From a virus (Duplodnaviria; Heunggongvirae; Uroviricota; Caudoviricetes): 42,371 nt of DNA. The DNA lies in the IMG/VR virus record IMGVR_UViG_2778261056_000006, positions 1 through 42,371 of that record, one strand, 5' to 3'. The position numbers and the translations under genes are program-made. The notes under the pieces were generated by a model. That model worked only from the letters and a program-made list of their open reading frames with translations. It ran no database searches and was not told where the DNA came from. Positions 1,645-15,841 of this stretch are shown here, piece by piece (position 1 is the first letter of the stretch; each line of letters starts with the position of its first letter).

Positions 1645-4600
1645 TTATGCCTGAGTACGCAGCGCTTCAAGGCGGCGCAGGTCGAAGTCGTTCAGTTCGT
1701 CGGTGTAGTCAGCAGTGATTGGCGCTGGCCATTCACCTGTGTCGAATCCGGTTGCGATATTGCGCATCGCTTTGCGGTACTCGAGCATACCCAGCTCCAG
1801 TAGTTCAGCGGATGCCTCGATGATGGCGATCCAGTGGTAGTTCTCGTCTTTGTTGACGAAAATCCAGAAGAACTGATCCAGCGCTGCGGTTTCGCAGTAC
1901 ATAGCCGCGCTCAGGTGATAATCACGTTCAATAATTTCCCGGTGTAGCCTGGCGCGCAGGCTTTCCTGCTTAACATTCCACATGCTGATGGTTTTCAGGT
2001 CTGCACCTATACGCACGCCATCCAGGTCGATCTCAAGGTCAGGGCGCACACGAACTTCCAAGCCCGTCTCCTCGTCAAAACCAAAGTAGCTCACCTCAAC
2101 GGCTCGGCTAGGGTGGGTCAGCAGCATGCCGGCGGTCGGGTGTGCCAGAAGCGCTTTTTGAATATTCAGCGCGGTGCTCAGCTGCTGGCGGGTGACCAGC
2201 ACTTTTCCTTCCGGGTTATCGCGCCAGGCATCCAGCAGTTCGTCGGCAAATACGGCATCTGGTTTGACTGCCTTCACGGCCTGGATCATGTCTGCTTTGG
2301 TACCGGACACTTTCAGTGGTGCCGGTTTCTGTGCTTCCTGAGCCACAAGGTCAGGGTTGATGATTGCCAACTGCTCCAGCAGCGCGTCACGGCTGCCGCT
2401 GGTTTTAACCGGCGGCGGCAGGGTGGCGTTGTACTCTTTAATGCATGCCTTCATTGCCGTCGCCGTCTGCTTCTGGTCACCATCAATACGCTGGAAGTCA
2501 GCTGGCAGCGCCATATAGTTCTGTGCCGTTTCTTCCAGGTTAGCGCCAAGCGGAACCTGCGGCGGCAGGGTGGCGTTGTACTCTTCCAGTAACACCTTGA
2601 TGTCGTCGGCAGACAGCAGCGCCGGCAGGCTGGCATTGTGCTCATCGATAAAGGCGCGCAGGGTCGCGGCCGTTGTGAATGCGCCTTCAGGGATCACCGG
2701 TTCAACGCTGAATTCTGCGTCCAGTAGTTCAGGCTGCAACGCCAGCGCATGCACCAAGTTGCCCATGTCCAGCACCGCTGAGCGCTCTTTGACGATGGTT
2801 TTCTCTACGTGGCGCGCATTGAAGTACATCAGCGAAACGCGCGCATCTTTCACCTGGGTTGAGCTGATGCCGTTGGCGGCGTGGTAAACCTCGTTTGGCA
2901 GCCCTTCATAGCGGCCTGGCTCGAAATAAGCGGGATAAACAACAGCCGGTTCGTCAGATTGCGCTTCTGGCTCGGTTTGTGCTGCAACTGGTTCGGTTTG
3001 GCTTACAGAATCGCTATTTTTGGCGACAGAATCCGTATTCTGGTTTACATCGTCCTTCTGGCTGGTATCTGACTCTTCACCAGACTCCAGACTGCTTTCG
3101 CCTGGCTGTACTTCATCACCAGCTTGTTTTTCATCACTGACAGTTTCTTGAACCTGCACATTGCTGGTGGTCTCCGTAGCCTTTTTCGTGCCATGAGTTG
3201 CTGAGTTCTGCAGCAAAGCCGTAACGTCGAATATTCCGTTGCCGACATTTTTAACCAGTTCTTGTTCGACTTTCTGCGGTTGTGCTGCCGCTTCCTCTGC
3301 GCGGCGGCGTGCTCCTTCTTCACGCACGCGTTGCAGGTTCTCTTCGTGAGTGCAGAAGGATTTGCGCGGAGACTCCTTACCTTCAGGTTGGGGAATTTCC
3401 TGTGCTGCGGGTTCAGCCTCATGCAACGGCAATAACTCGACCGCGGAATTGAACGCGGCTGTCATGGTCTGGTTAACAAATTCCAGGTGAGCGACAGGAG
3501 TTAAATGAATATTTTCCGGTGCGATACGTACCAGGTTAAAAATAGCCGTGCGGTTAACACCCAGAACGCCTGGCTGATTGCGCAGGATGTTGCTCCATGA
3601 TTTCCATGGTTCTTCTTTTTTGGTCACGATTTCTTTAGCGCGACGAAGAATGCTGCCCGGGATCTCGAAGTGGTTGAAGTCCATAGGCAGAAGGGCACAC
3701 GCAATCTCTAAATCGAGAGTGTCCAGTGTGTGGTGTGCGTCAGGTCCACGGTCAGTGACGTAACCGCCGTCGGCATTAGTGCCGGAATCAGTACGCTGCA
3801 CACTACTGATGCGATTACCGGCGGCCCATTCGCGAACGAGGATACCGCGGTCGATGTGATCTGTAGCGAACCACAATTTCAAAAACTGGATTAAGGTTGC
3901 GAGTTCAGGGATTTTTCCATCGACAGGGAAGACTTTCTTAACGGCATTCACGACTTTATGAATATCGTGCTCAATGGCTTTTTTGAATGCTTCCACATTC
4001 TCAGCTGCCAGCAGCAGGTTCTGGACGTACGCGTCATCGGTGTCCATCTCAAGGCGGACAATCTCATTTTTCTGCCCTGCGTCGATGTGATAGAGATATT
4101 CACCATCACCGATGAACTGAGCCAGTACGCGCTGGCGGAATGGCAGGGTGGCAACAACGATCAGGTTCGGTTGCTGTGTCTGCTGGGATTGCTCTTCGGT
4201 ATCGACTTCACCATCAACGACGCCACCTTCTGCCCGGCCGTTCTCGTCGGTCTGGATACCGTCCTCAACAGTGAGATCTTGACCCGTTGTAACGTCAGCA
4301 GCGTTGCTGGTTTCAGTTTTGAGCAACTGCAACTTACCACTGCGCCAGTCTTCTACCAGTTGATTGCGGTCACCGGCATCGGTGTTCACCCAGTCAGACA
4401 TGAATGCAGCGATCAATCTTGGTTCGTGCTCTTCGTCTGGTGTGAAAATGTCCTTAACCGCCCGAATCATTTTCCACTCAGCATTCAGGCTGAGTTTGGC
4501 GGTCGCGGGCACATCGTTCCTTGCCACAAGCAGGCTATGGAGATATGTATTGCCTTCATCCAGTGACATTTCGCTGGCAGCCAACTGCTGCTCTTTAGTG

Positions 4601-6170: not shown

Positions 6171-6199
6171 AGTAAAACACCGCTTTACCATTAAGTCAA
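6171..6199 (-). promoter_or_regulatory. PL-like leftward promoter overlapped by operator OL (GTAAAACACCGCTTTAC at 6172-6188)
   Basis: On minus strand TTGACT(-35, 6199-6194)-17 bp-TTTACT(-10, 6176-6171); operator dyad GTAAA-N5-GCTTTAC overlaps spacer and -10; near-identical to the PR arrangement. Confidence 0.5.
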
Positions 6200-6261
6200 G
6201 CAATGCAGATTCAAAAGGTAAAGCATAGCTGTATGTTGGGCGAAATTTATCCAGATTAGAG

Positions 6262-6513
6262 ATGATTGCATCAACTAAAAGTGTGTATGATGAAAAAAAA
6301 CATCATTGGGGGTGGGATGTGGAAAAGTTCTACGTGGGTTACAACGATGTATGTCAGGCGGTAGGTAGAGCGACGCTGAATCTGATATCACATGGAGACG
6401 CGCCAACTACTGAGGCGATCATTTCAATGCTTGAGTCGCTGGGGGATATTGAGAAGAACGATTTTTGGCGGCAGGTGTTCAGGTTTGCTGCTGAGGAAGT
6501 GCGAAAAGGGTAG
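6262..6513 (+). CDS. hypothetical protein (rightward gene between OL and the repressor operon)
   Basis: 83-aa ORF with ATG start, convergent with the repressor operon, ends at a shared hairpin terminator. Confidence 0.5.
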   Translation: MIASTKSVYDEKKHHWGWDVEKFYVGYNDVCQAVGRATLNLISHGDAPTTEAIISMLESLGDIEKNDFWRQVFRFAAEEVRKG

Positions 6514-6518
6514 GCAAT

Positions 6519-6550
6519 AAAAAACCCGGCGCAGTGGCCGGATTATTTAC
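6519..6550. terminator. bidirectional intrinsic terminator between convergent genes
   Basis: A6 run, stem CCGGC(6526-6530)/GCCGG(6537-6541) with 6-nt loop, then AT-rich tail; U-run available on both strands. Confidence 0.55.
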
Positions 6551-7154
6551 TATTCTGAGGTGCAGGTGCAGGTGCAGGTGCAGGTGCAGGTGCAGGTGCA
6601 GGTTGTATTATCTCGACAGGTTTTAGATGAGATTGCACTTGGGGCAACGCGAGAATTACGGCAAGCAATGCTAAAATGGCACCAACCATCCACTGAAGAG
6701 TGGCTGATGTCGTCTTTAAACCATCGATCTGCCCTTTTAATCCTTCGATTTGTCCTTTTAGGCCAGTAAACTCACCATTAACCCCTGAAATCTGAGCTTT
6801 AATTTCCGACATAGAGGTATTCATTGCAGAAAACTGCTGCGCTTGAAAGGCCCTAAATTCAGCCATTTCACGCCGCATCTCGGCGGCCACTACATCCACC
6901 TCTGCTTTGTTCTGAGCAAACTTGGCGTCAAGTTCTTCCCTTGAGATACCCACAGCATCTACCTCAGCATCTTCGCCTTTAACAATGGTTTGACTTTTAG
7001 ATAATGGATTCGTTCTACTTTTCCCCATTTTTGTTAAAATCGGGTTTTTCGGTCGAATATTTACCACATCCGCTTTTTCATGATATGCGGGCATGTGAAA
7101 TGCGTCAACTTTGACGTCAGGCGACGAGGTTTTGCGAATTGAGGCTCCATCCAC
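6543..7154 (-). CDS. membrane-anchored coiled-coil protein with C-terminal (Pro-Ala)n tail
   Basis: 203 aa; heptad-like GLKGQIEGLKGQIDGLK, one predicted TM helix (WMVGAILALLAVILAL), then PAPAPAPAPAPAPAP encoded by a hexanucleotide repeat; GTG start at 7154 (alternative ATGs at residues 21 and 43). Confidence 0.55.
   Translation of the reverse strand: MDGASIRKTSSPDVKVDAFHMPAYHEKADVVNIRPKNPILTKMGKSRTNPLSKSQTIVKGEDAEVDAVGISREELDAKFAQNKAEVDVVAAEMRREMAEFRAFQAQQFSAMNTSMSEIKAQISGVNGEFTGLKGQIEGLKGQIDGLKTTSATLQWMVGAILALLAVILALPQVQSHLKPVEIIQPAPAPAPAPAPAPAPQNSK
6559..6602. repeat. hexanucleotide microsatellite (GGTGCA)7 = minus-strand (CCTGCA)n encoding (Pro-Ala)n
   Basis: Seven perfect tandem copies read directly from sequence, inside the 3' end of the 6543-7154 CDS. 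Confidence 0.9.
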
Positions 7155-7159
7155 TTAAA

Positions 7160-7465
7160 TTAATCCTGCTTTTTAAGTTCGCGCTCAAAGGGTTCAATGA
7201 GACCCGGATCCATAACAGTAGCATTAAGTATTGCTTGAGCCATGTTTTTTGCCATAGACATTGGTAGAGTGACTGAACTAGTAGCCTCAAGAAACATATT
7301 CACCCCAGCTTCAGTATTCGTTTCATCAGGAATGTTCAAGTTGTCGACCACATGTCTACAAAAAGTAATGTGGCAATAGGCATTATCTCCGACATTCATT
7401 CCAGTAGTTATAAAAACATCCGCAAATCCAGCGTTGTAGTCTTTAGATTTTTTGATTTCTGGCAT
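7160..7465 (-). CDS. hypothetical protein
   Basis: 101-aa ORF with SD AAGGAG upstream of ATG at 7465; co-oriented with the repressor genes. Confidence 0.55.
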   Translation of the reverse strand: MPEIKKSKDYNAGFADVFITTGMNVGDNAYCHITFCRHVVDNLNIPDETNTEAGVNMFLEATSSVTLPMSMAKNMAQAILNATVMDPGLIEPFERELKKQD

Positions 7466-7505: not shown

Positions 7506-7916
7506 TTATTCCATATCACCCTTAATCCGCCGCCCCATATACTTGGCGTACAGTTCATCGAGTTCTTTCAATCGTAGAGATACGATCCGCAACATGTTCT
7601 GTTGTTCTTCTTCGTTTGGGAGTTGATTATAGAGTTCCAACAGTCTCCGTTCGTCGTGTCTCAAACCGTCCTTAGCATCCACGTCCTGACCTAGAACCCA
7701 CTCAAGACTTACGCCTAGCGCATCGGCAAGTTTTATTGCTGAGCTTTTTCCTATCGCTCCTCTGACAAACCAGTTGTTGACTGATTGTGCGCTCACACCA
7801 CAGATTCTCGCTATATCCGCTTTGGATATGCGCTTCTTCTCGATGATTTCATTTAACCGCCGAACCTGCGGGTTATCTGTTTGGTGTGTGTTTTTTCTCA
7901 TGTACAAGAGTATCAC
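7506..7916 (-). CDS. XRE-family HTH regulator, paralogue of the prophage repressor
   Basis: N-terminal HTH (ISKADIARICGVSAQSVNNWF), C-terminal segment nearly identical to the adjacent repressor (LELYNQLP.EEEQQNM.RI.SLRLKELDELYAKYM.RRI.GD); ORF starts at GTG 7916, first ATG at 7901. Confidence 0.65.
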   Translation of the reverse strand: MILLYMRKNTHQTDNPQVRRLNEIIEKKRISKADIARICGVSAQSVNNWFVRGAIGKSSAIKLADALGVSLEWVLGQDVDAKDGLRHDERRLLELYNQLPNEEEQQNMLRIVSLRLKELDELYAKYMGRRIKGDME

Positions 7917-7920
7917 TTAG

Positions 7921-8304
7921 CTAATCAGCATCGCCCCTGATTCTGCGATTCATGTACTTGGCATATAGTTCATCGAGTTCCTTCAGACGCAGGGAGAAGA
8001 TCCTTATCATATTCTGCTGTTCTTCTTCCGGTAACTGTCTGTAGAGCTCCAGAATACGTTGTTCATCAGGCTTAAGGCCATCCTTCTCTCCAACATCCTC
8101 ACCAAGTAGCCAGGGGACGGATACCCCAGCAGCATCAGCAACCGCTAATGCAGAACTTTTGCTGATTCTTCCTGTTTTGAACCAACTGGAAACAGCTTGC
8201 TTACTGACGCCAGCAACCCTGGCCATCTCTGTTTTAGAGAAACCTTTCCGGTTCAGTTCTGTAAGCCTGGAGATCAGCCCAGTAGTCATTGTGTTTTCGC
8301 TCAT
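7921..8304 (-). CDS. CI-like prophage repressor (short XRE-HTH type, no S24 peptidase domain)
   Basis: HTH (FSKTEMARVAGVSKQAVSSWF) plus C-terminal oligomerisation-like domain; divergent from the Cro-like gene across an operator region; in-frame ORF extends to 8388 but that would bury the operators in coding sequence, so ATG 8304 (or 8289) is the likely start, possibly leaderless. Confidence 0.6.
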   Translation of the reverse strand: MSENTMTTGLISRLTELNRKGFSKTEMARVAGVSKQAVSSWFKTGRISKSSALAVADAAGVSVPWLLGEDVGEKDGLKPDEQRILELYRQLPEEEQQNMIRIFSLRLKELDELYAKYMNRRIRGDAD

Positions 8305-8313
8305 TTCACTAGT

Positions 8314-8330
8314 GTAAATGATTGCTTTAC
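8314..8330. promoter_or_regulatory. operator site OR-a (GTAAATGATTGCTTTAC)
   Basis: 17-bp dyad GTAAA-N5-GCTTTAC, one of three copies in the window, just upstream of the repressor start. Confidence 0.55.
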
Positions 8331-8351
8331 CAGTAGGTAGGCATTCATTGA

Positions 8352-8380
8352 TTGACTCATTGGTAAAATGATGCTTTACT
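8352..8380 (+). promoter_or_regulatory. PR-like rightward promoter overlapped by operator OR-b (GTAAAATGATGCTTTAC at 8363-8379)
   Basis: TTGACT(8352-8357)-17 bp-TTTACT(8375-8380), followed by SD AAGGAGG and ATG 8402; operator overlaps spacer and -10. Confidence 0.6.
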
Positions 8381-8401
8381 TTTTCCATCTAAGGAGGTCC
8401 T

Positions 8402-8626
8402 ATGACTGGTATTGAGAAAGCTATTCAAAAGTTTGGCACAGGTGCGGCACTCGGAAGAGCGCTTGGATTTTCAAAAATGACAATTTCCAACTGGAAGAAA
8501 ACTGGCATTCCGCCCGATCACATTCGCTCTGTTTTTGAGCTTACGGGAGTCACCCCGCATGAGTTGCGGCCTGACTTATATCCCAATCCAACCGATGCCT
8601 TACCAGTGCAAGAAACGAGGGCATAA
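8402..8626 (+). CDS. Cro-like HTH regulator (YdaS-type)
   Basis: 74 aa; HTH (AALGRALGFSKMTISNWKK) and HELRPDLYP motif typical of Rac YdaS-type Cro analogues; strong SD; divergent from repressor. Confidence 0.7.
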   Translation: MTGIEKAIQKFGTGAALGRALGFSKMTISNWKKTGIPPDHIRSVFELTGVTPHELRPDLYPNPTDALPVQETRA

Positions 8627-8628
8627 CC

Positions 8629-9168
8629 ATGCAGTCACTGTCACTTCATCAAAATAGCGGATATCAACCGGCTGCGATGATAAATCGCAATCAACCTGTC
8701 TCGGTAGATAAACATGACCAGATCCGCGATGCCGTTCGTGCGTGGGCGGGTGTAGATGGTCAGGATGTCGTTTCTGCTCTGATCATCGAAGAGTACCAGG
8801 CTCAAGGGGGAGACGAGATCACTTTCCCTGATGACCTCAGCCGACAGCGTCAGAAGCTTTTCCGCTTTCTGGATAACCATTTCAACAGCGAACGGTACCG
8901 CGAAAACGTTCGCCAGCTGACTCCGGCAATCCTCGCTGTCCTGCCGATTGAATACCGCAATCGTCTGCTACCAGAAGACAACGTAATGGCTCGTCTGGCA
9001 AGGCTGGAGAAGGAAACCAGCGAAGCGAAGATTGCTGTCGCAATGGATGCGCCACGTCATCAGAAGCTGAAAGAGTTGAGCGAGGGGATCGTGGAGATGT
9101 ATCGCGTTGACCCTGGGTTAACCGGTCCGTTGATGGAAATAGTGCAGATTATGCTGGGGGCTATATGA
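8629..9168 (+). CDS. YdaT-like regulatory protein (CII position)
   Basis: 179 aa directly after the Cro-like gene (4-nt gap); position and loose motif resemblance to the Rac YdaT family. Confidence 0.5.
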   Translation: MQSLSLHQNSGYQPAAMINRNQPVSVDKHDQIRDAVRAWAGVDGQDVVSALIIEEYQAQGGDEITFPDDLSRQRQKLFRFLDNHFNSERYRENVRQLTPAILAVLPIEYRNRLLPEDNVMARLARLEKETSEAKIAVAMDAPRHQKLKELSEGIVEMYRVDPGLTGPLMEIVQIMLGAI

Positions 9169-13216: not shown

Positions 13217-13867
13217 ATGAGCGACAACCAGTTAGCACCTTGTTGGGAATTTCAGCCTTACCTTGCTGAAAGCAATGTTCGTCAGTTGTTAGCGGAAATT
13301 GCTAATGTACTCGAGCAATTGTACTACCACAAACACACACTGGACAGTAACTGGTCCGAAGGTGTAAGGGCTTATGATTGGGTCAGAAATCATTTGATTC
13401 AAAGTGAAGGGACACTGCCGGGTCTGGAAATGGTTTCGAAGGGACTGGATTATGTGGTTGCGTTAAATAAAGTGCCGCTGCAGTTCTCCAAAGATTGCAT
13501 TAATAACCCGAAGAAGAAGCATCGCCTTCTTCGAAATAGGGTGGAGCATGAGCAACTTTCATTGTTCGGTGAAACTGAAGCCGAGCAAGATATTACATGG
13601 CGGATCATCGCCGAACCATTTTTATCCGATGAAGAAGATGGCGAGCTGGAATCAACATTGCCTCGCTGGGAAGTGGCTTTAGTTGGGTTTAACGCATATG
13701 GTGCCCAGATCAGTATGGTTTCACACCAATCTACTGCTTCAGCGCCGCTTATGTCTCTTGATACCAACACTCTTCCGGATGAAGCTGAGATTGGCAAAGC
13801 CTCTCTTCGCCGCCGTAAAAAAGATCAAGATTTGGATGTGAGCAGTAATGGAACATCAAGTGAATGA
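13217..13867 (+). CDS. unknown protein, candidate effector/toxin partner of the downstream HTH-peptidase
   Basis: 216-aa ORF with no motif I recognise; 3' end overlaps the next gene by 20 nt; preceded by TTGACA -35-like element and 12-bp direct repeats TTTGGTTGCTT. Confidence 0.55.
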   Translation: MSDNQLAPCWEFQPYLAESNVRQLLAEIANVLEQLYYHKHTLDSNWSEGVRAYDWVRNHLIQSEGTLPGLEMVSKGLDYVVALNKVPLQFSKDCINNPKKKHRLLRNRVEHEQLSLFGETEAEQDITWRIIAEPFLSDEEDGELESTLPRWEVALVGFNAYGAQISMVSHQSTASAPLMSLDTNTLPDEAEIGKASLRRRKKDQDLDVSSNGTSSE

Positions 13868-14951
13868 CTTTGCTGAGTATCGTGGGGATAAGCTCAAATT
13901 AGCCAGAATGGCTGTTGGGCTCTCCTGCGAAGAGTTAGCGGAGAAAATTGGTAAAACAAAACAATTCGTTAGCAAATTGGAAAAAGGGTTTAAACCATCA
14001 GAACAGTTGTTAGAATTAATCTCATCTGCGCTGATGATTAAATCTGATTTCCTATTTACTGAACGAAAATATGCTTTAGAAAGCGATGTTTGCCATTTTC
14101 GGAGTAAAAAATCGAGAACCCAAACATTAACCAATAGTGTTCTGGCAAGGGCGGAGATTCTTAACATTATAATCTCTGCCGTTGAGGGAGAAATCGAGTT
14201 TCCTGATGTTTTCATACCTGAGCACCCCGGTGCTGAATTGCTGACTCCAAATGATATTGAACGTGTAGCGGAAGACTGCAGAAGAGCATGGAACTTAGGG
14301 CTGGGACCTATATCCTCAATGGTCAAACTGGCTGAGAGTTTGGGGGTTATTGTTGCTCATGTGACAGGAGTGGATGACCGCGTAGATGCTTTTACTGTTC
14401 ATAACAACAGGCCAGTAATCATCCGAAATAACGTCAAAAAGAGTATATGCAGATTCCGATCAGATTTAGGTCACGAATTGGGGCACTTGGTTATGCACGA
14501 AGGTATAACCACAGGAGATAAAGTGACTGAATCGCAAGCGGATCGTTTTTCAAGCGCGTTGCTAGTTCCTCGATTGTCCTTTATTAAAGAGTTTCCCCGT
14601 ATACGAGGAAGACAGTTCGATTGGAACGCCCTAGTTGAGTTTAAGCTTCGGTGGAAGATTAGTCTTAAAATGTGCATTTACCGAGCAACAACTCTAGGCC
14701 TGCTGACGCAGGAGCAGGCAAGAACAGGTTATATGCATTTGAACTCTAAAGGATATACGAAAGTTGAACCAGGAGATGAATTTATTCGCCCGGAAGAACC
14801 GAGTATGTTAGCTGAGGCGATTGAAATGCTGGATGATGCAACATGGATGAGCATTCTCATGAAAACTGGTTTAAGCCAGGAGTTGGTTAGGGAGTTATTC
14901 TCGGTAAACCGCCCACTGTCAAATCCAAGAAATCTACTTCAACTGGTTTGA
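13848..14951 (+). CDS. fused XRE-family HTH + ImmA/IrrE (COG2856, Peptidase_M78-type) zinc metallopeptidase
   Basis: 367 aa; N-terminal HTH (LKLARMAVGLSCEELAEKIGKTKQFVSKLEKG); HExxH zinc motif HELGHLVMH in the C-terminal domain. Confidence 0.8.
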   Translation: MEHQVNDFAEYRGDKLKLARMAVGLSCEELAEKIGKTKQFVSKLEKGFKPSEQLLELISSALMIKSDFLFTERKYALESDVCHFRSKKSRTQTLTNSVLARAEILNIIISAVEGEIEFPDVFIPEHPGAELLTPNDIERVAEDCRRAWNLGLGPISSMVKLAESLGVIVAHVTGVDDRVDAFTVHNNRPVIIRNNVKKSICRFRSDLGHELGHLVMHEGITTGDKVTESQADRFSSALLVPRLSFIKEFPRIRGRQFDWNALVEFKLRWKISLKMCIYRATTLGLLTQEQARTGYMHLNSKGYTKVEPGDEFIRPEEPSMLAEAIEMLDDATWMSILMKTGLSQELVRELFSVNRPLSNPRNLLQLV

Positions 14952-15203: not shown

Positions 15204-15223
15204 TACTGTATAAAAACACAGTA
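15204..15223. promoter_or_regulatory. LexA box (SOS operator) upstream of dinI homologue
   Basis: TACTGTATAAAAACACAGTA, a near-consensus CTGT-N8-ACAG site, 19 nt upstream of the dinI ATG and overlapping the likely -10. Confidence 0.8.
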
Positions 15224-15241: not shown

Positions 15242-15475
15242 ATGAAAGTTGAATTAACCATTGATCGCATGAAAGAACTTCCTAAAGGCGCAGTACCAGC
15301 ACTGGAGAAAGAACTGCTTAAGCGCCTGAATGATCACTATGACAATTGCAGGCTCACAATCCGCCGTGCCGGGTCCGATGGGTTAAGTGTTTTTGGTGGT
15401 GACAAGGACGATAAAAAGAAAATTGAATCAATCCTCCAGGATACCCGGGAAAGCGCTGACGACTGGTTTTATTAG
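15242..15475 (+). CDS. dinI: DinI-family protein
   Basis: 77 aa from ATG 15242 (SD GGAGG 5 nt upstream); aligns along its length with E. coli DinI (…LSV.G..K.DK..I..ILQ.T.ESADDWF). Confidence 0.85.
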   Translation: MKVELTIDRMKELPKGAVPALEKELLKRLNDHYDNCRLTIRRAGSDGLSVFGGDKDDKKKIESILQDTRESADDWFY

Positions 15476-15592: not shown

Positions 15593-15841
15593 GTGAGTGA
15601 TTCAGCTTTGCAAACGTCAGAAGACAACTGGTATGACATTGTAAGAAGGTCTGACGGCTGCGTGGTGTTTAGCTTTCCTTCATCGGGCAGGCATCTAATT
15701 TATCGCGTCAATGGCATGGTTTCTATGCGGCCTTTGCTGGATGATGAAGAGGTCTTTACTCCTAATGGTTTTATGCAATTTATCCGCCGTCTCGGCTACC
15801 GGGTAACACCACCTTCTGATAATATGAAATCAACGGTCTGA
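15593..15841 (+). CDS. hypothetical protein downstream of dinI
   Basis: 82-aa ORF with GTG start and SD GAAGGGAG; no recognisable motif. Confidence 0.45.
   Translation: MSDSALQTSEDNWYDIVRRSDGCVVFSFPSSGRHLIYRVNGMVSMRPLLDDEEVFTPNGFMQFIRRLGYRVTPPSDNMKSTV

Follow-up and report, generated by a model that had tools for sequence, protein, structure and literature searches.

Superinfection immunity is normally described in terms of one repressor acting against one immunity group. We analyzed a viral genome (Caudoviricetes; IMG/VR record IMGVR_UViG_2778261056_000006, positions 1 to 42,371, hereafter the window) whose immunity region encodes two adjacent short repressors, which we call A and B. The family to which they belong has been described for the Gifsy prophages of Salmonella, where induction leaves the repressors GfoR, GfhR and GtgR uncleaved (Lemire et al. 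2011, PMC3121763). Gifsy repressors are inactivated by small antirepressors, which are produced from a LexA-controlled dinI–antirepressor operon located outside the immunity region (PMC3121763). [quoted passage not shown] The gfhR gene has two functional in-frame AUG codons with a promoter between them, and the GfhR* isoform accumulates upon induction (PMC3121763).

Three further systems invite comparison. In the cI–rexA–rexB operon of lambda, cargo is co-expressed with the repressor in lysogens, and A sits in the same slot, just downstream of the maintenance repressor. The cargo itself differs, being the immunity repressor of another phage group rather than an abortive-infection or exclusion protein. 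SinR of Bacillus subtilis combines an XRE helix-turn-helix (HTH) domain with a C-terminal helical oligomerization module, and its small antagonist SinI inactivates it by binding. Here the likeness is one of analogy only, as the weak fold match between SinR and B is essentially confined to the HTH (E = 0.04, query TM-score 0.37), and we found no evidence of homology to SinR/SinI in the C-terminal hairpin or the antirepressor. PaaR2, from the cryptic prophage CP-933P of E. coli O157:H7, is a CI analogue encoded with YdaS and YdaT, and its leaderless translation has been shown experimentally (PMC8630535). It resembles A and B in layout: PaaR2 is short, lacks a peptidase motif, and is divergent from ydaS–ydaT over a 97-bp intergenic region (8305–8401 of the window is equal in length), with the cargo genes paaA2–parE2 downstream (PMC8630535). 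It differs in its reported operator consensus, GTTTAGTAA; it has no second repressor, and no antirepressor has been described for it.

Compared with the Gifsy prophages, the window has the same type of small XRE/CI-type repressor without a cleavage domain, and the same set of LexA box, dinI and GTG-initiated small antirepressor gene several kilobases to the right of the immunity region. In both settings, two repressor types share a C-terminal module and differ in operator specificity, and the same antirepressors are known to hit both. In Salmonella, however, the two types reside in separate prophages, each beside its own operators, whereas the window holds them in one operon in which only B is matched. 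This tandem layout is not described in PMC3121763. We regard it as reasonably probable that A and B are two autonomous Gifsy-family repressors of different specificities within one operon, that A gives GfoR-type immunity, and that a single antirepressor is shared by the two.

Two Gifsy-family repressors and one matching operator set

An earlier note on this DNA, made from the sequence alone, had described two adjacent short repressors with XRE HTH domains, a near-identical C-terminal segment of about 50 residues, and no S24 peptidase domain. Both open reading frames (ORFs) are present on the minus strand (Table 1). Their products align with 61% identity across 129 residues (BLASTP, E = 6e-54), and the C-terminal part is the more conserved, with 78–81% identity over the final 54 residues, including the motif the note had quoted. 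HTH_3 was detected in A (E = 2.8e-8) and in B (E = 6.6e-7), both proteins passed the Phage_CI_repr cut-off, and the Pfam search returned no Peptidase_S24 match for either. A and B end approximately 55 residues past the HTH domain. The AlphaFold2 model of B is all-helical (mean pLDDT 84.5), comprising an HTH domain (residues 2–66), a linker, and a C-terminal helical hairpin (79–89 and 93–122) rather than a beta-rich peptidase fold. A Foldseek search of the Protein Data Bank (PDB) matched the five-helix HTH domain to the DNA-binding domains of SinR, 434 and P22 C2 and to C-proteins (E of at least 0.025); these matches were confined to the HTH, and a PDB sequence search gave nothing significant for the C-terminal part. 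With no S24 match, a short C-terminus and an all-helical model, a self-cleaving identity of the LexA/lambda-CI type was rejected for A and B. Because both are short XRE/CI-type repressors lacking the S24 domain, RecA-stimulated self-cleavage is not expected, which agrees with the note. No third repressor copy or fragment was located in the window by sensitive tblastn with the C-terminal domain as query.

The features of the Gifsy family are all found here: an XRE/CI-type HTH, a length of roughly 130–155 residues, no S24 domain, and a LexA–dinI–antirepressor operon in the same prophage. The assignment of A runs through IMG/VR locus L073, where both gfoR primers (le144 and le145) find exact matches, one at the second codon and the other immediately after the stop. 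The L073 repressor and A are 74% identical and have nearly the same HTH, and A is on this basis predicted to be a GfoR-type repressor. Identity to B is 87–91% for the sole repressors of Gifsy-like prophages in Salmonella, very common proteins, and approximately 90% for S. Typhimurium proteins with a ParA-like gene downstream. B also has the layout of gfhR, with operators and promoters lying between two in-frame AUG codons. The upstream AUG yields the form of B that is annotated in most homologues, and the extension overlaps the right operator region (OR) and both divergent promoters. This open frame is retained in homologues from Salmonella, Citrobacter and Klebsiella, and has a parallel in the GfhR* isoform.

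Repeat analysis of OR and the left region returned the palindrome GTAAA-N7-TTTAC as the predicted B-type operator. Three perfect copies occur in the window, two in OR and one in the left operator region (OL), and an imperfect second OL site lies at approximately 6218–6234; about 0.8 matches would be expected by chance in the whole window even with one mismatch allowed. Fourteen Salmonella B-type loci, mEp237 and E. coli TC24 have B-type sites at these positions as well. The predicted A-type operator, TAAAC-N5-GTTTA, was derived from conservation among loci whose sole repressor falls in the A-clade (73–100% identical to A). Perfect OR copies are present in 76/76 such loci, with two OR sites in all but one (approximately 27 and 74 nucleotides upstream of the ATG), and nearly all have two further A-type sites in OL, whatever the intervening cargo. 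This motif does not occur in the 42,371-base window at one mismatch or fewer, and the two-mismatch matches are scattered, mostly inside coding regions. Nor was an A-type operator found in any other tandem or B-type locus examined. Matching OR and OL operators, as would be expected of a resident repressor, were thus found for B and not for A. B is the predicted resident immunity repressor of the prophage; A would not be running the phage's own switch, because the A-type operators are absent from the prophage.

Hexamers read from the sequence suggest a rightward promoter, PR, with TTGACT (8352–8357) as the −35 and TTTACT (8375–8380) as the −10 element, with an operator between them. For the leftward maintenance promoter, a −10-like TACACT ends 6 nucleotides before the ATG of B, which implies a transcript with no or almost no leader. 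Since no minus-strand terminator was detected between B and 6544-6523, B, A, orf101 and orf203 look like one leftward lysogenic operon. A consensus scan of the B–A spacer revealed no terminator, clear Shine-Dalgarno sequence or convincing promoter. A −10-like GATACT sits 7 nucleotides upstream of the A ATG without a −35 element and was not relied upon; an alternative GTG start for A is located at 7916. The genes orf101 and orf203 accompany A in three other loci (L002, L004 and L023), have no Pfam or PADLOC match, and occupy the slot that holds defense or toxin-antitoxin cargo in related prophages. On the rightward side, the replication genes come after the ydaT-type gene.

Table 1. Features of the immunity region and the SOS cassette in the window.
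Feature	Position	Strand	Evidence and remarks
B-type operator in OL, GTAAAACACCGCTTTAC	6172..6188	.	equivalent site in mEp237 and Salmonella B-type loci
Intrinsic terminator, bidirectional	6544-6523	-	terminator scan; closes the lysogenic operon
orf203	6543..7154	-	ORF; phrog_5820 match (function unknown)
orf101	7160..7465	-	ORF downstream of A
Repressor A, 131 residues, ATG start (MRKNTHQ)	7506..7901	-	ORF; Pfam HTH_3, Phage_CI_repr
B–A spacer, 19 nucleotides, B stop to A ATG	7902..7920	-	sequence
Repressor B, short form, 127 residues (MSENTM)	7921..8304	-	ORF; Pfam HTH_3, Phage_CI_repr; adjoins OR
Upstream in-frame extension of B, 28 codons, MEKVKHHFTNESINECLPTGKAIIYTSE	8305..8388	-	ATG at 8388 gives a 155-residue form
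B-type operator, OR side nearer B, GTAAATGATTGCTTTAC	8314..8330	.	overlaps inferred -10 of leftward maintenance promoter
B-type operator, OR side nearer cro, GTAAAATGATGCTTTAC	8363..8379	.	between inferred PR -35 and -10
Cro-like YdaS-family regulator, divergent from B	8402..8626	+	Pfam YdaS_toxin, E = 4.5e-12
CII-like YdaT-family regulator	8629..9168	+	Pfam YdaT_toxin, E = 2e-25
LexA box, TACTGTATAAAAACACAGTA	15204..15223	+	perfect CTGT-N8-ACAG at 15206-15221; just upstream of dinI
dinI homologue	15242..15475	+	Pfam DinI, E = 3.6e-23; phrog_189
GfoA-like small antirepressor, 82 residues, GTG start	15593..15841	+	gfoA primer matches; phrog_340

Origin and distribution of the tandem

Each repressor type is found alone elsewhere. 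The prophages in E. coli 2022CK-00450 (L002), Citrobacter pasteurii (L004) and an IMG/VR contig (L027) each have a single repressor, adjacent to operators, that is 100% identical to A; at 92% identity or above, A is the only repressor in 11 of 5,426 complete E. coli genomes and in 41 IMG/VR contigs. B-type proteins are the sole repressors in the Salmonella prophages sampled, with variable cargo downstream (a ParA-like gene; HipA_2 with DUF3037; others). The cro gene of the window is 100% identical to that of mEp237 and 47–56% identical to the cro of single-repressor loci L002–L008; for the sole-A prophages, including the three whose repressor equals A, the value is 47–49%.

From the OL side as far as position 7909, approximately 8 nucleotides upstream of the A ATG, the window shares 92–95% identity with L002 and L004, A included. 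Homology to the sole-A prophages is then lost across B, OR and cro, and returns at 8542 inside cro. A second comparison, with E. coli 1368KP (98.6% identical), shows homology ending at 8139, where the HTH of B gives way to the linker. The joints at 8139 and 8542 are sharp mosaic breaks, and what they exchange is limited to the DNA-binding half, OR and most of cro.

The proportion of synonymous differences between A and B is 0.78–0.97 in both halves, and the C-terminal non-synonymous proportion is much lower (0.17). Saturation of synonymous sites indicates that the pair is old and not a recent duplication; A and B are, as far as these comparisons go, old paralogues joined by recombination rather than by local duplication. 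The C-terminal DNA is only 67–76% identical, and, with synonymous sites saturated, the likeness of the C-termini is likewise old and would have been kept by selection at the protein level. Gene conversion was rejected as an explanation on the same two observations, as was recent duplication.

Tandems are also present in other prophages. B is followed by a different second repressor, A', in mEp237, TC24 and PCP06171, while another first repressor, C, precedes A in 1368KP and A' in AR_0118. A further pair, D and E, was found in SEN34 and five IMG/VR contigs. An identical junction, consisting of the stop codon, 19 nucleotides and the ATG, is shared by all four combinations of B or C with A or A'. 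At the nucleotide level, C and B are 99% identical in the C-terminal half and 59% in the N-terminal half. Together, the shared junction and the pattern of the B and C halves argue that the junction arose once and that homologous recombination subsequently reassorted the alleles, the conserved C-terminal coding segment being the putative recombination joint. In L023 (approximately 3415–3431 and 3464–3480), and also in L025, the OR sites are of a C-type, TAAAT-N5-GTTTA, with one exact half-site in common with the A-type operator; in C+A tandems, a passenger A might partly recognize the resident operators, or C/A heterodimers might bind.

Two of these prophages have published genomes. mEp237 (JQ182730, genes 038 and 039) has the same two-gene layout, with identical B, cro, OR and junction, and differs in its second gene, as A' is 72.5% identical to A, and in its other cargo genes. 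SEN34 (KT630649, genes 42 and 43) likewise pairs a B-clade first gene with an A-clade second gene, at 60–78% identity. Their second genes carry no annotation beyond 'hypothetical protein' or 'putative DNA-binding protein', and our literature search returned no reported function for them. The same search returned no paper on two heteroimmune Gifsy-type repressors in one operon with one operator set, and nothing relevant on tandem, orphan or dual-immunity repressors. The protein family and its mechanism of induction are already known, and the tandem is present yet unremarked in the mEp237 and SEN34 genomes.

SOS cassette and shared C-terminal module

The window also contains an induction device that is not mentioned in the earlier note: a LexA box, dinI and a GfoA-like antirepressor gene (Table 1). 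A terminator-like hairpin precedes the LexA box, and the layout is that described for Gifsy prophages. Of the gfoA primers, pp866 has a match at 15597 with 1 mismatch in 17, and pp867 one at 15802 with 2 mismatches in 22. The LexA–dinI–antirepressor cassette is 100% identical in the E. coli 2022CK-00450 prophage, whose only repressor, A, lies approximately 7 kb away, and it is 98–99.7% identical in the B+A', C+A and C+A' tandem prophages. A single antirepressor allele is thus used with repressors that differ in their HTH domains. We also considered that the antirepressor might be homologous to the repressor C-terminus, as for SinI/SinR, and rejected this since no signal was found.

Conservation of the C-terminus extends to all family members examined, sole repressors included, with the invariant pattern SLRLK.LDE.Y.KYM.RR, and the tail variants of this segment shuffle independently of HTH type. 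Conservation across the whole family means that this segment is not specific to a partnership between A and B. The earlier note had drawn on the shared C-terminus to argue that the two proteins probably hetero-oligomerize; that argument loses its force, as the module is family-wide and we found no evidence particular to the pair. Hetero-oligomers of A and B are possible. Because one cassette is found across HTH types and GfoA and GfhA are known to act crosswise, the C-terminal helical hairpin is probably a common oligomerization or antirepressor-docking module.

A proposed role for the second repressor

Taken as two autonomous repressors, A and B would act as follows. B, promoter-proximal and of GfhR type, would control the switch at OR (8314 and 8363) and OL (6172). 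A would have been placed behind B through an exchange of immunity modules between related phages and, being co-transcribed with B from a slot for lysogen-expressed cargo, would most likely make the lysogen immune to superinfecting GfoR-type phages. It could also add repression to a co-resident GfoR-type prophage. Upon DNA damage, LexA would leave its box, the GfoA-like antirepressor would be made, and it would bind and inactivate both A and B, neither of which would be cleaved, probably via the shared C-terminal helical hairpin. The expression of A, its immunity in trans and the docking of the antirepressor on the C-terminal module are the parts of this scheme that we infer. The earlier note had offered three roles for the second copy, namely to tune, antagonize or extend the specificity of the first. 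Extension fits best, as A is a complete repressor of another group whose own operators are absent.

Several observations weigh against this explanation. Its weak point is the expression of A, which has no clear Shine-Dalgarno sequence and looks leaderless in its native setting. As an internal cistron, A may be poorly translated, and its expression would therefore depend on read-through and translational coupling. The A- and B-type sites share the core TAAA-N7-TTTA with equal spacing and are distinguished mainly by one inner base per half-site and by the flanks, so A may bind weakly to the operators of B. The experimental heteroimmunity of Gifsy-1 and Gifsy-3 (PMC3121763) argues that motif differences of this kind are enough to discriminate. 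The description of B as GfhR-like is itself inferred from context, namely its Salmonella homologues and the two-AUG layout. Tandems are rare: they were found in 4 of 5,426 complete E. coli genomes, and of the 80 IMG/VR loci nearest to A, drawn from a scan with the family alignment, 75 hold a single repressor and 5 hold a tandem, in each case of the SEN34 type. A scan of genome contigs with A alone gave 5 loci, all of them single-repressor. Downstream of the repressor genes in mEp237 (L001 3628-3762) and at L068 (4125-4247) lie C-terminal-only repressor fragments, which imply that displaced repressors can decay and so argue against strong selection. Lastly, the A' alleles within tandems differ at 5 synonymous and 5 non-synonymous positions, too few for a selection test. 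As for the fragments themselves, they hold only the C-terminal 41–45 residues, are 47–59% identical to B, and look like remnants of earlier displaced repressors.

More tentatively, A may be a selected anti-phage defense gene: an orphan repressor from an abundant other group, retained with no operator for it in the carrier phage and expressed from the operon of the resident repressor, that would confer dual immunity, with one antirepressor releasing both repressors and the C-terminal coding segment serving as a recombination joint through which phages reassort DNA-binding halves and accumulate repressors. We think this possible, and would give it somewhat less weight than the autonomy of the two repressors.

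The serious rival is that A is a neutral relic. An A-immunity phage would have gained a foreign B–OR–cro module that pushed the old repressor downstream, where it is intact only because the event is recent; A would then have no selected role and would be bound to decay. The 92–95% identity of the region containing A, orf101 and orf203 to sole-A prophages, with its break just before the A ATG and its resumption at 8542, is what such an event would leave, and the rarity of tandems, the decayed copies in mEp237 and L068, the missing Shine-Dalgarno sequence in the new context and the lack of a clear sign of constraint among A' alleles all fit as well. Yet the second-position copies are all intact ORFs (in the window, mEp237, TC24, PCP06171, AR_0118, 1368KP, SEN34 and the five IMG/VR contigs), and the same junction runs through all four combinations of first and second gene. 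The distant SEN34 has a comparable tandem of a B-clade and an A-clade gene, and A' occurs only in second position in the 5,426 E. coli genomes. Moreover, an identical protein, if expressed at all, would confer immunity whether or not it had been selected. On balance, we consider a neutral relic unlikely, while still deserving of attention.

We find it improbable that A modulates B, either in mixed dimers or oligomers formed via the shared C-terminus or as a sponge for the antirepressor, so as to tune repression or the SOS threshold. Such a role would draw on the strong likeness of the last 54 residues (approximately 80% identical, with a nearly invariant final helix), and on the single cassette that serves A alone, B+A', C+A and C+A', which presumably sees the shared module, so that A would compete with B. 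Oligomers are also familiar in related proteins: GfoR is dimeric and the GfoR–GfoA complex behaves as an A2B2 tetramer (PMC3121763), and the related CI analogue PaaR2 is reported to be octameric (PMC8630535). However, the same C-terminus occurs in sole repressors and is thus no evidence of co-adaptation between A and B; B-type proteins stand alone in the sampled Salmonella prophages and A does so in many others; and GfoR and GfhR keep separate immunities when together in ATCC14028 (PMC3121763). PDB sequence and Foldseek searches turned up no solved structure of the C-terminal domain. A recent local tandem duplication, after which the DNA-binding half diverged, would suit two adjacent genes on the same strand that are 61% identical and more conserved in the C-terminal half, but it is contradicted, and hardly credible, given saturated synonymous sites in both halves, sole repressors elsewhere that equal A and have their own operators and cro, and a first repressor in mEp237 that is 100% identical to B and paired with a different second gene.

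If A and B do act as two autonomous repressors, the locus suggests that retaining a foreign repressor gene as cargo is a simple way for a temperate phage to broaden its host's protection. Repressors built from a variable DNA-binding half and a conserved C-terminal half would allow one SOS-controlled antirepressor to release both. Repressor genes would then join the list of prophage-borne defense cargo, and the upkeep of antirepressor crosstalk among Salmonella Gifsy prophages would be explained in part by a docking module kept uniform by recombination. The presence of matching operators offers a simple annotation rule for telling resident from passenger repressors in prophages. Should A be a neutral relic, the locus would still offer a clean view of how lambdoid phages replace immunity modules.

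Some neighboring features complete the picture. At its C-terminal end, the orf203 product carries a Pro-Ala repeat, PAPAPAPAPAPAPAP, that arises from a perfect hexanucleotide tandem repeat, (AGGTGC)n, at 6558-6603 and could be variable in length. Between OL and the terminator at 6523-6544, an 83-residue ORF (6262-6513, plus strand) is convergent with the lysogenic operon and has a weak phrog_33151 match (E = 2e-4). Just upstream of the LexA–dinI–antirepressor operon lie two overlapping plus-strand genes with matches to the RosmerTA anti-phage defense system, RmrT (13217..13867, E = 2.4e-26) and RmrA (13848..14951, E = 1.6e-106), the latter combining an HTH domain with an M78/IrrE-type peptidase.

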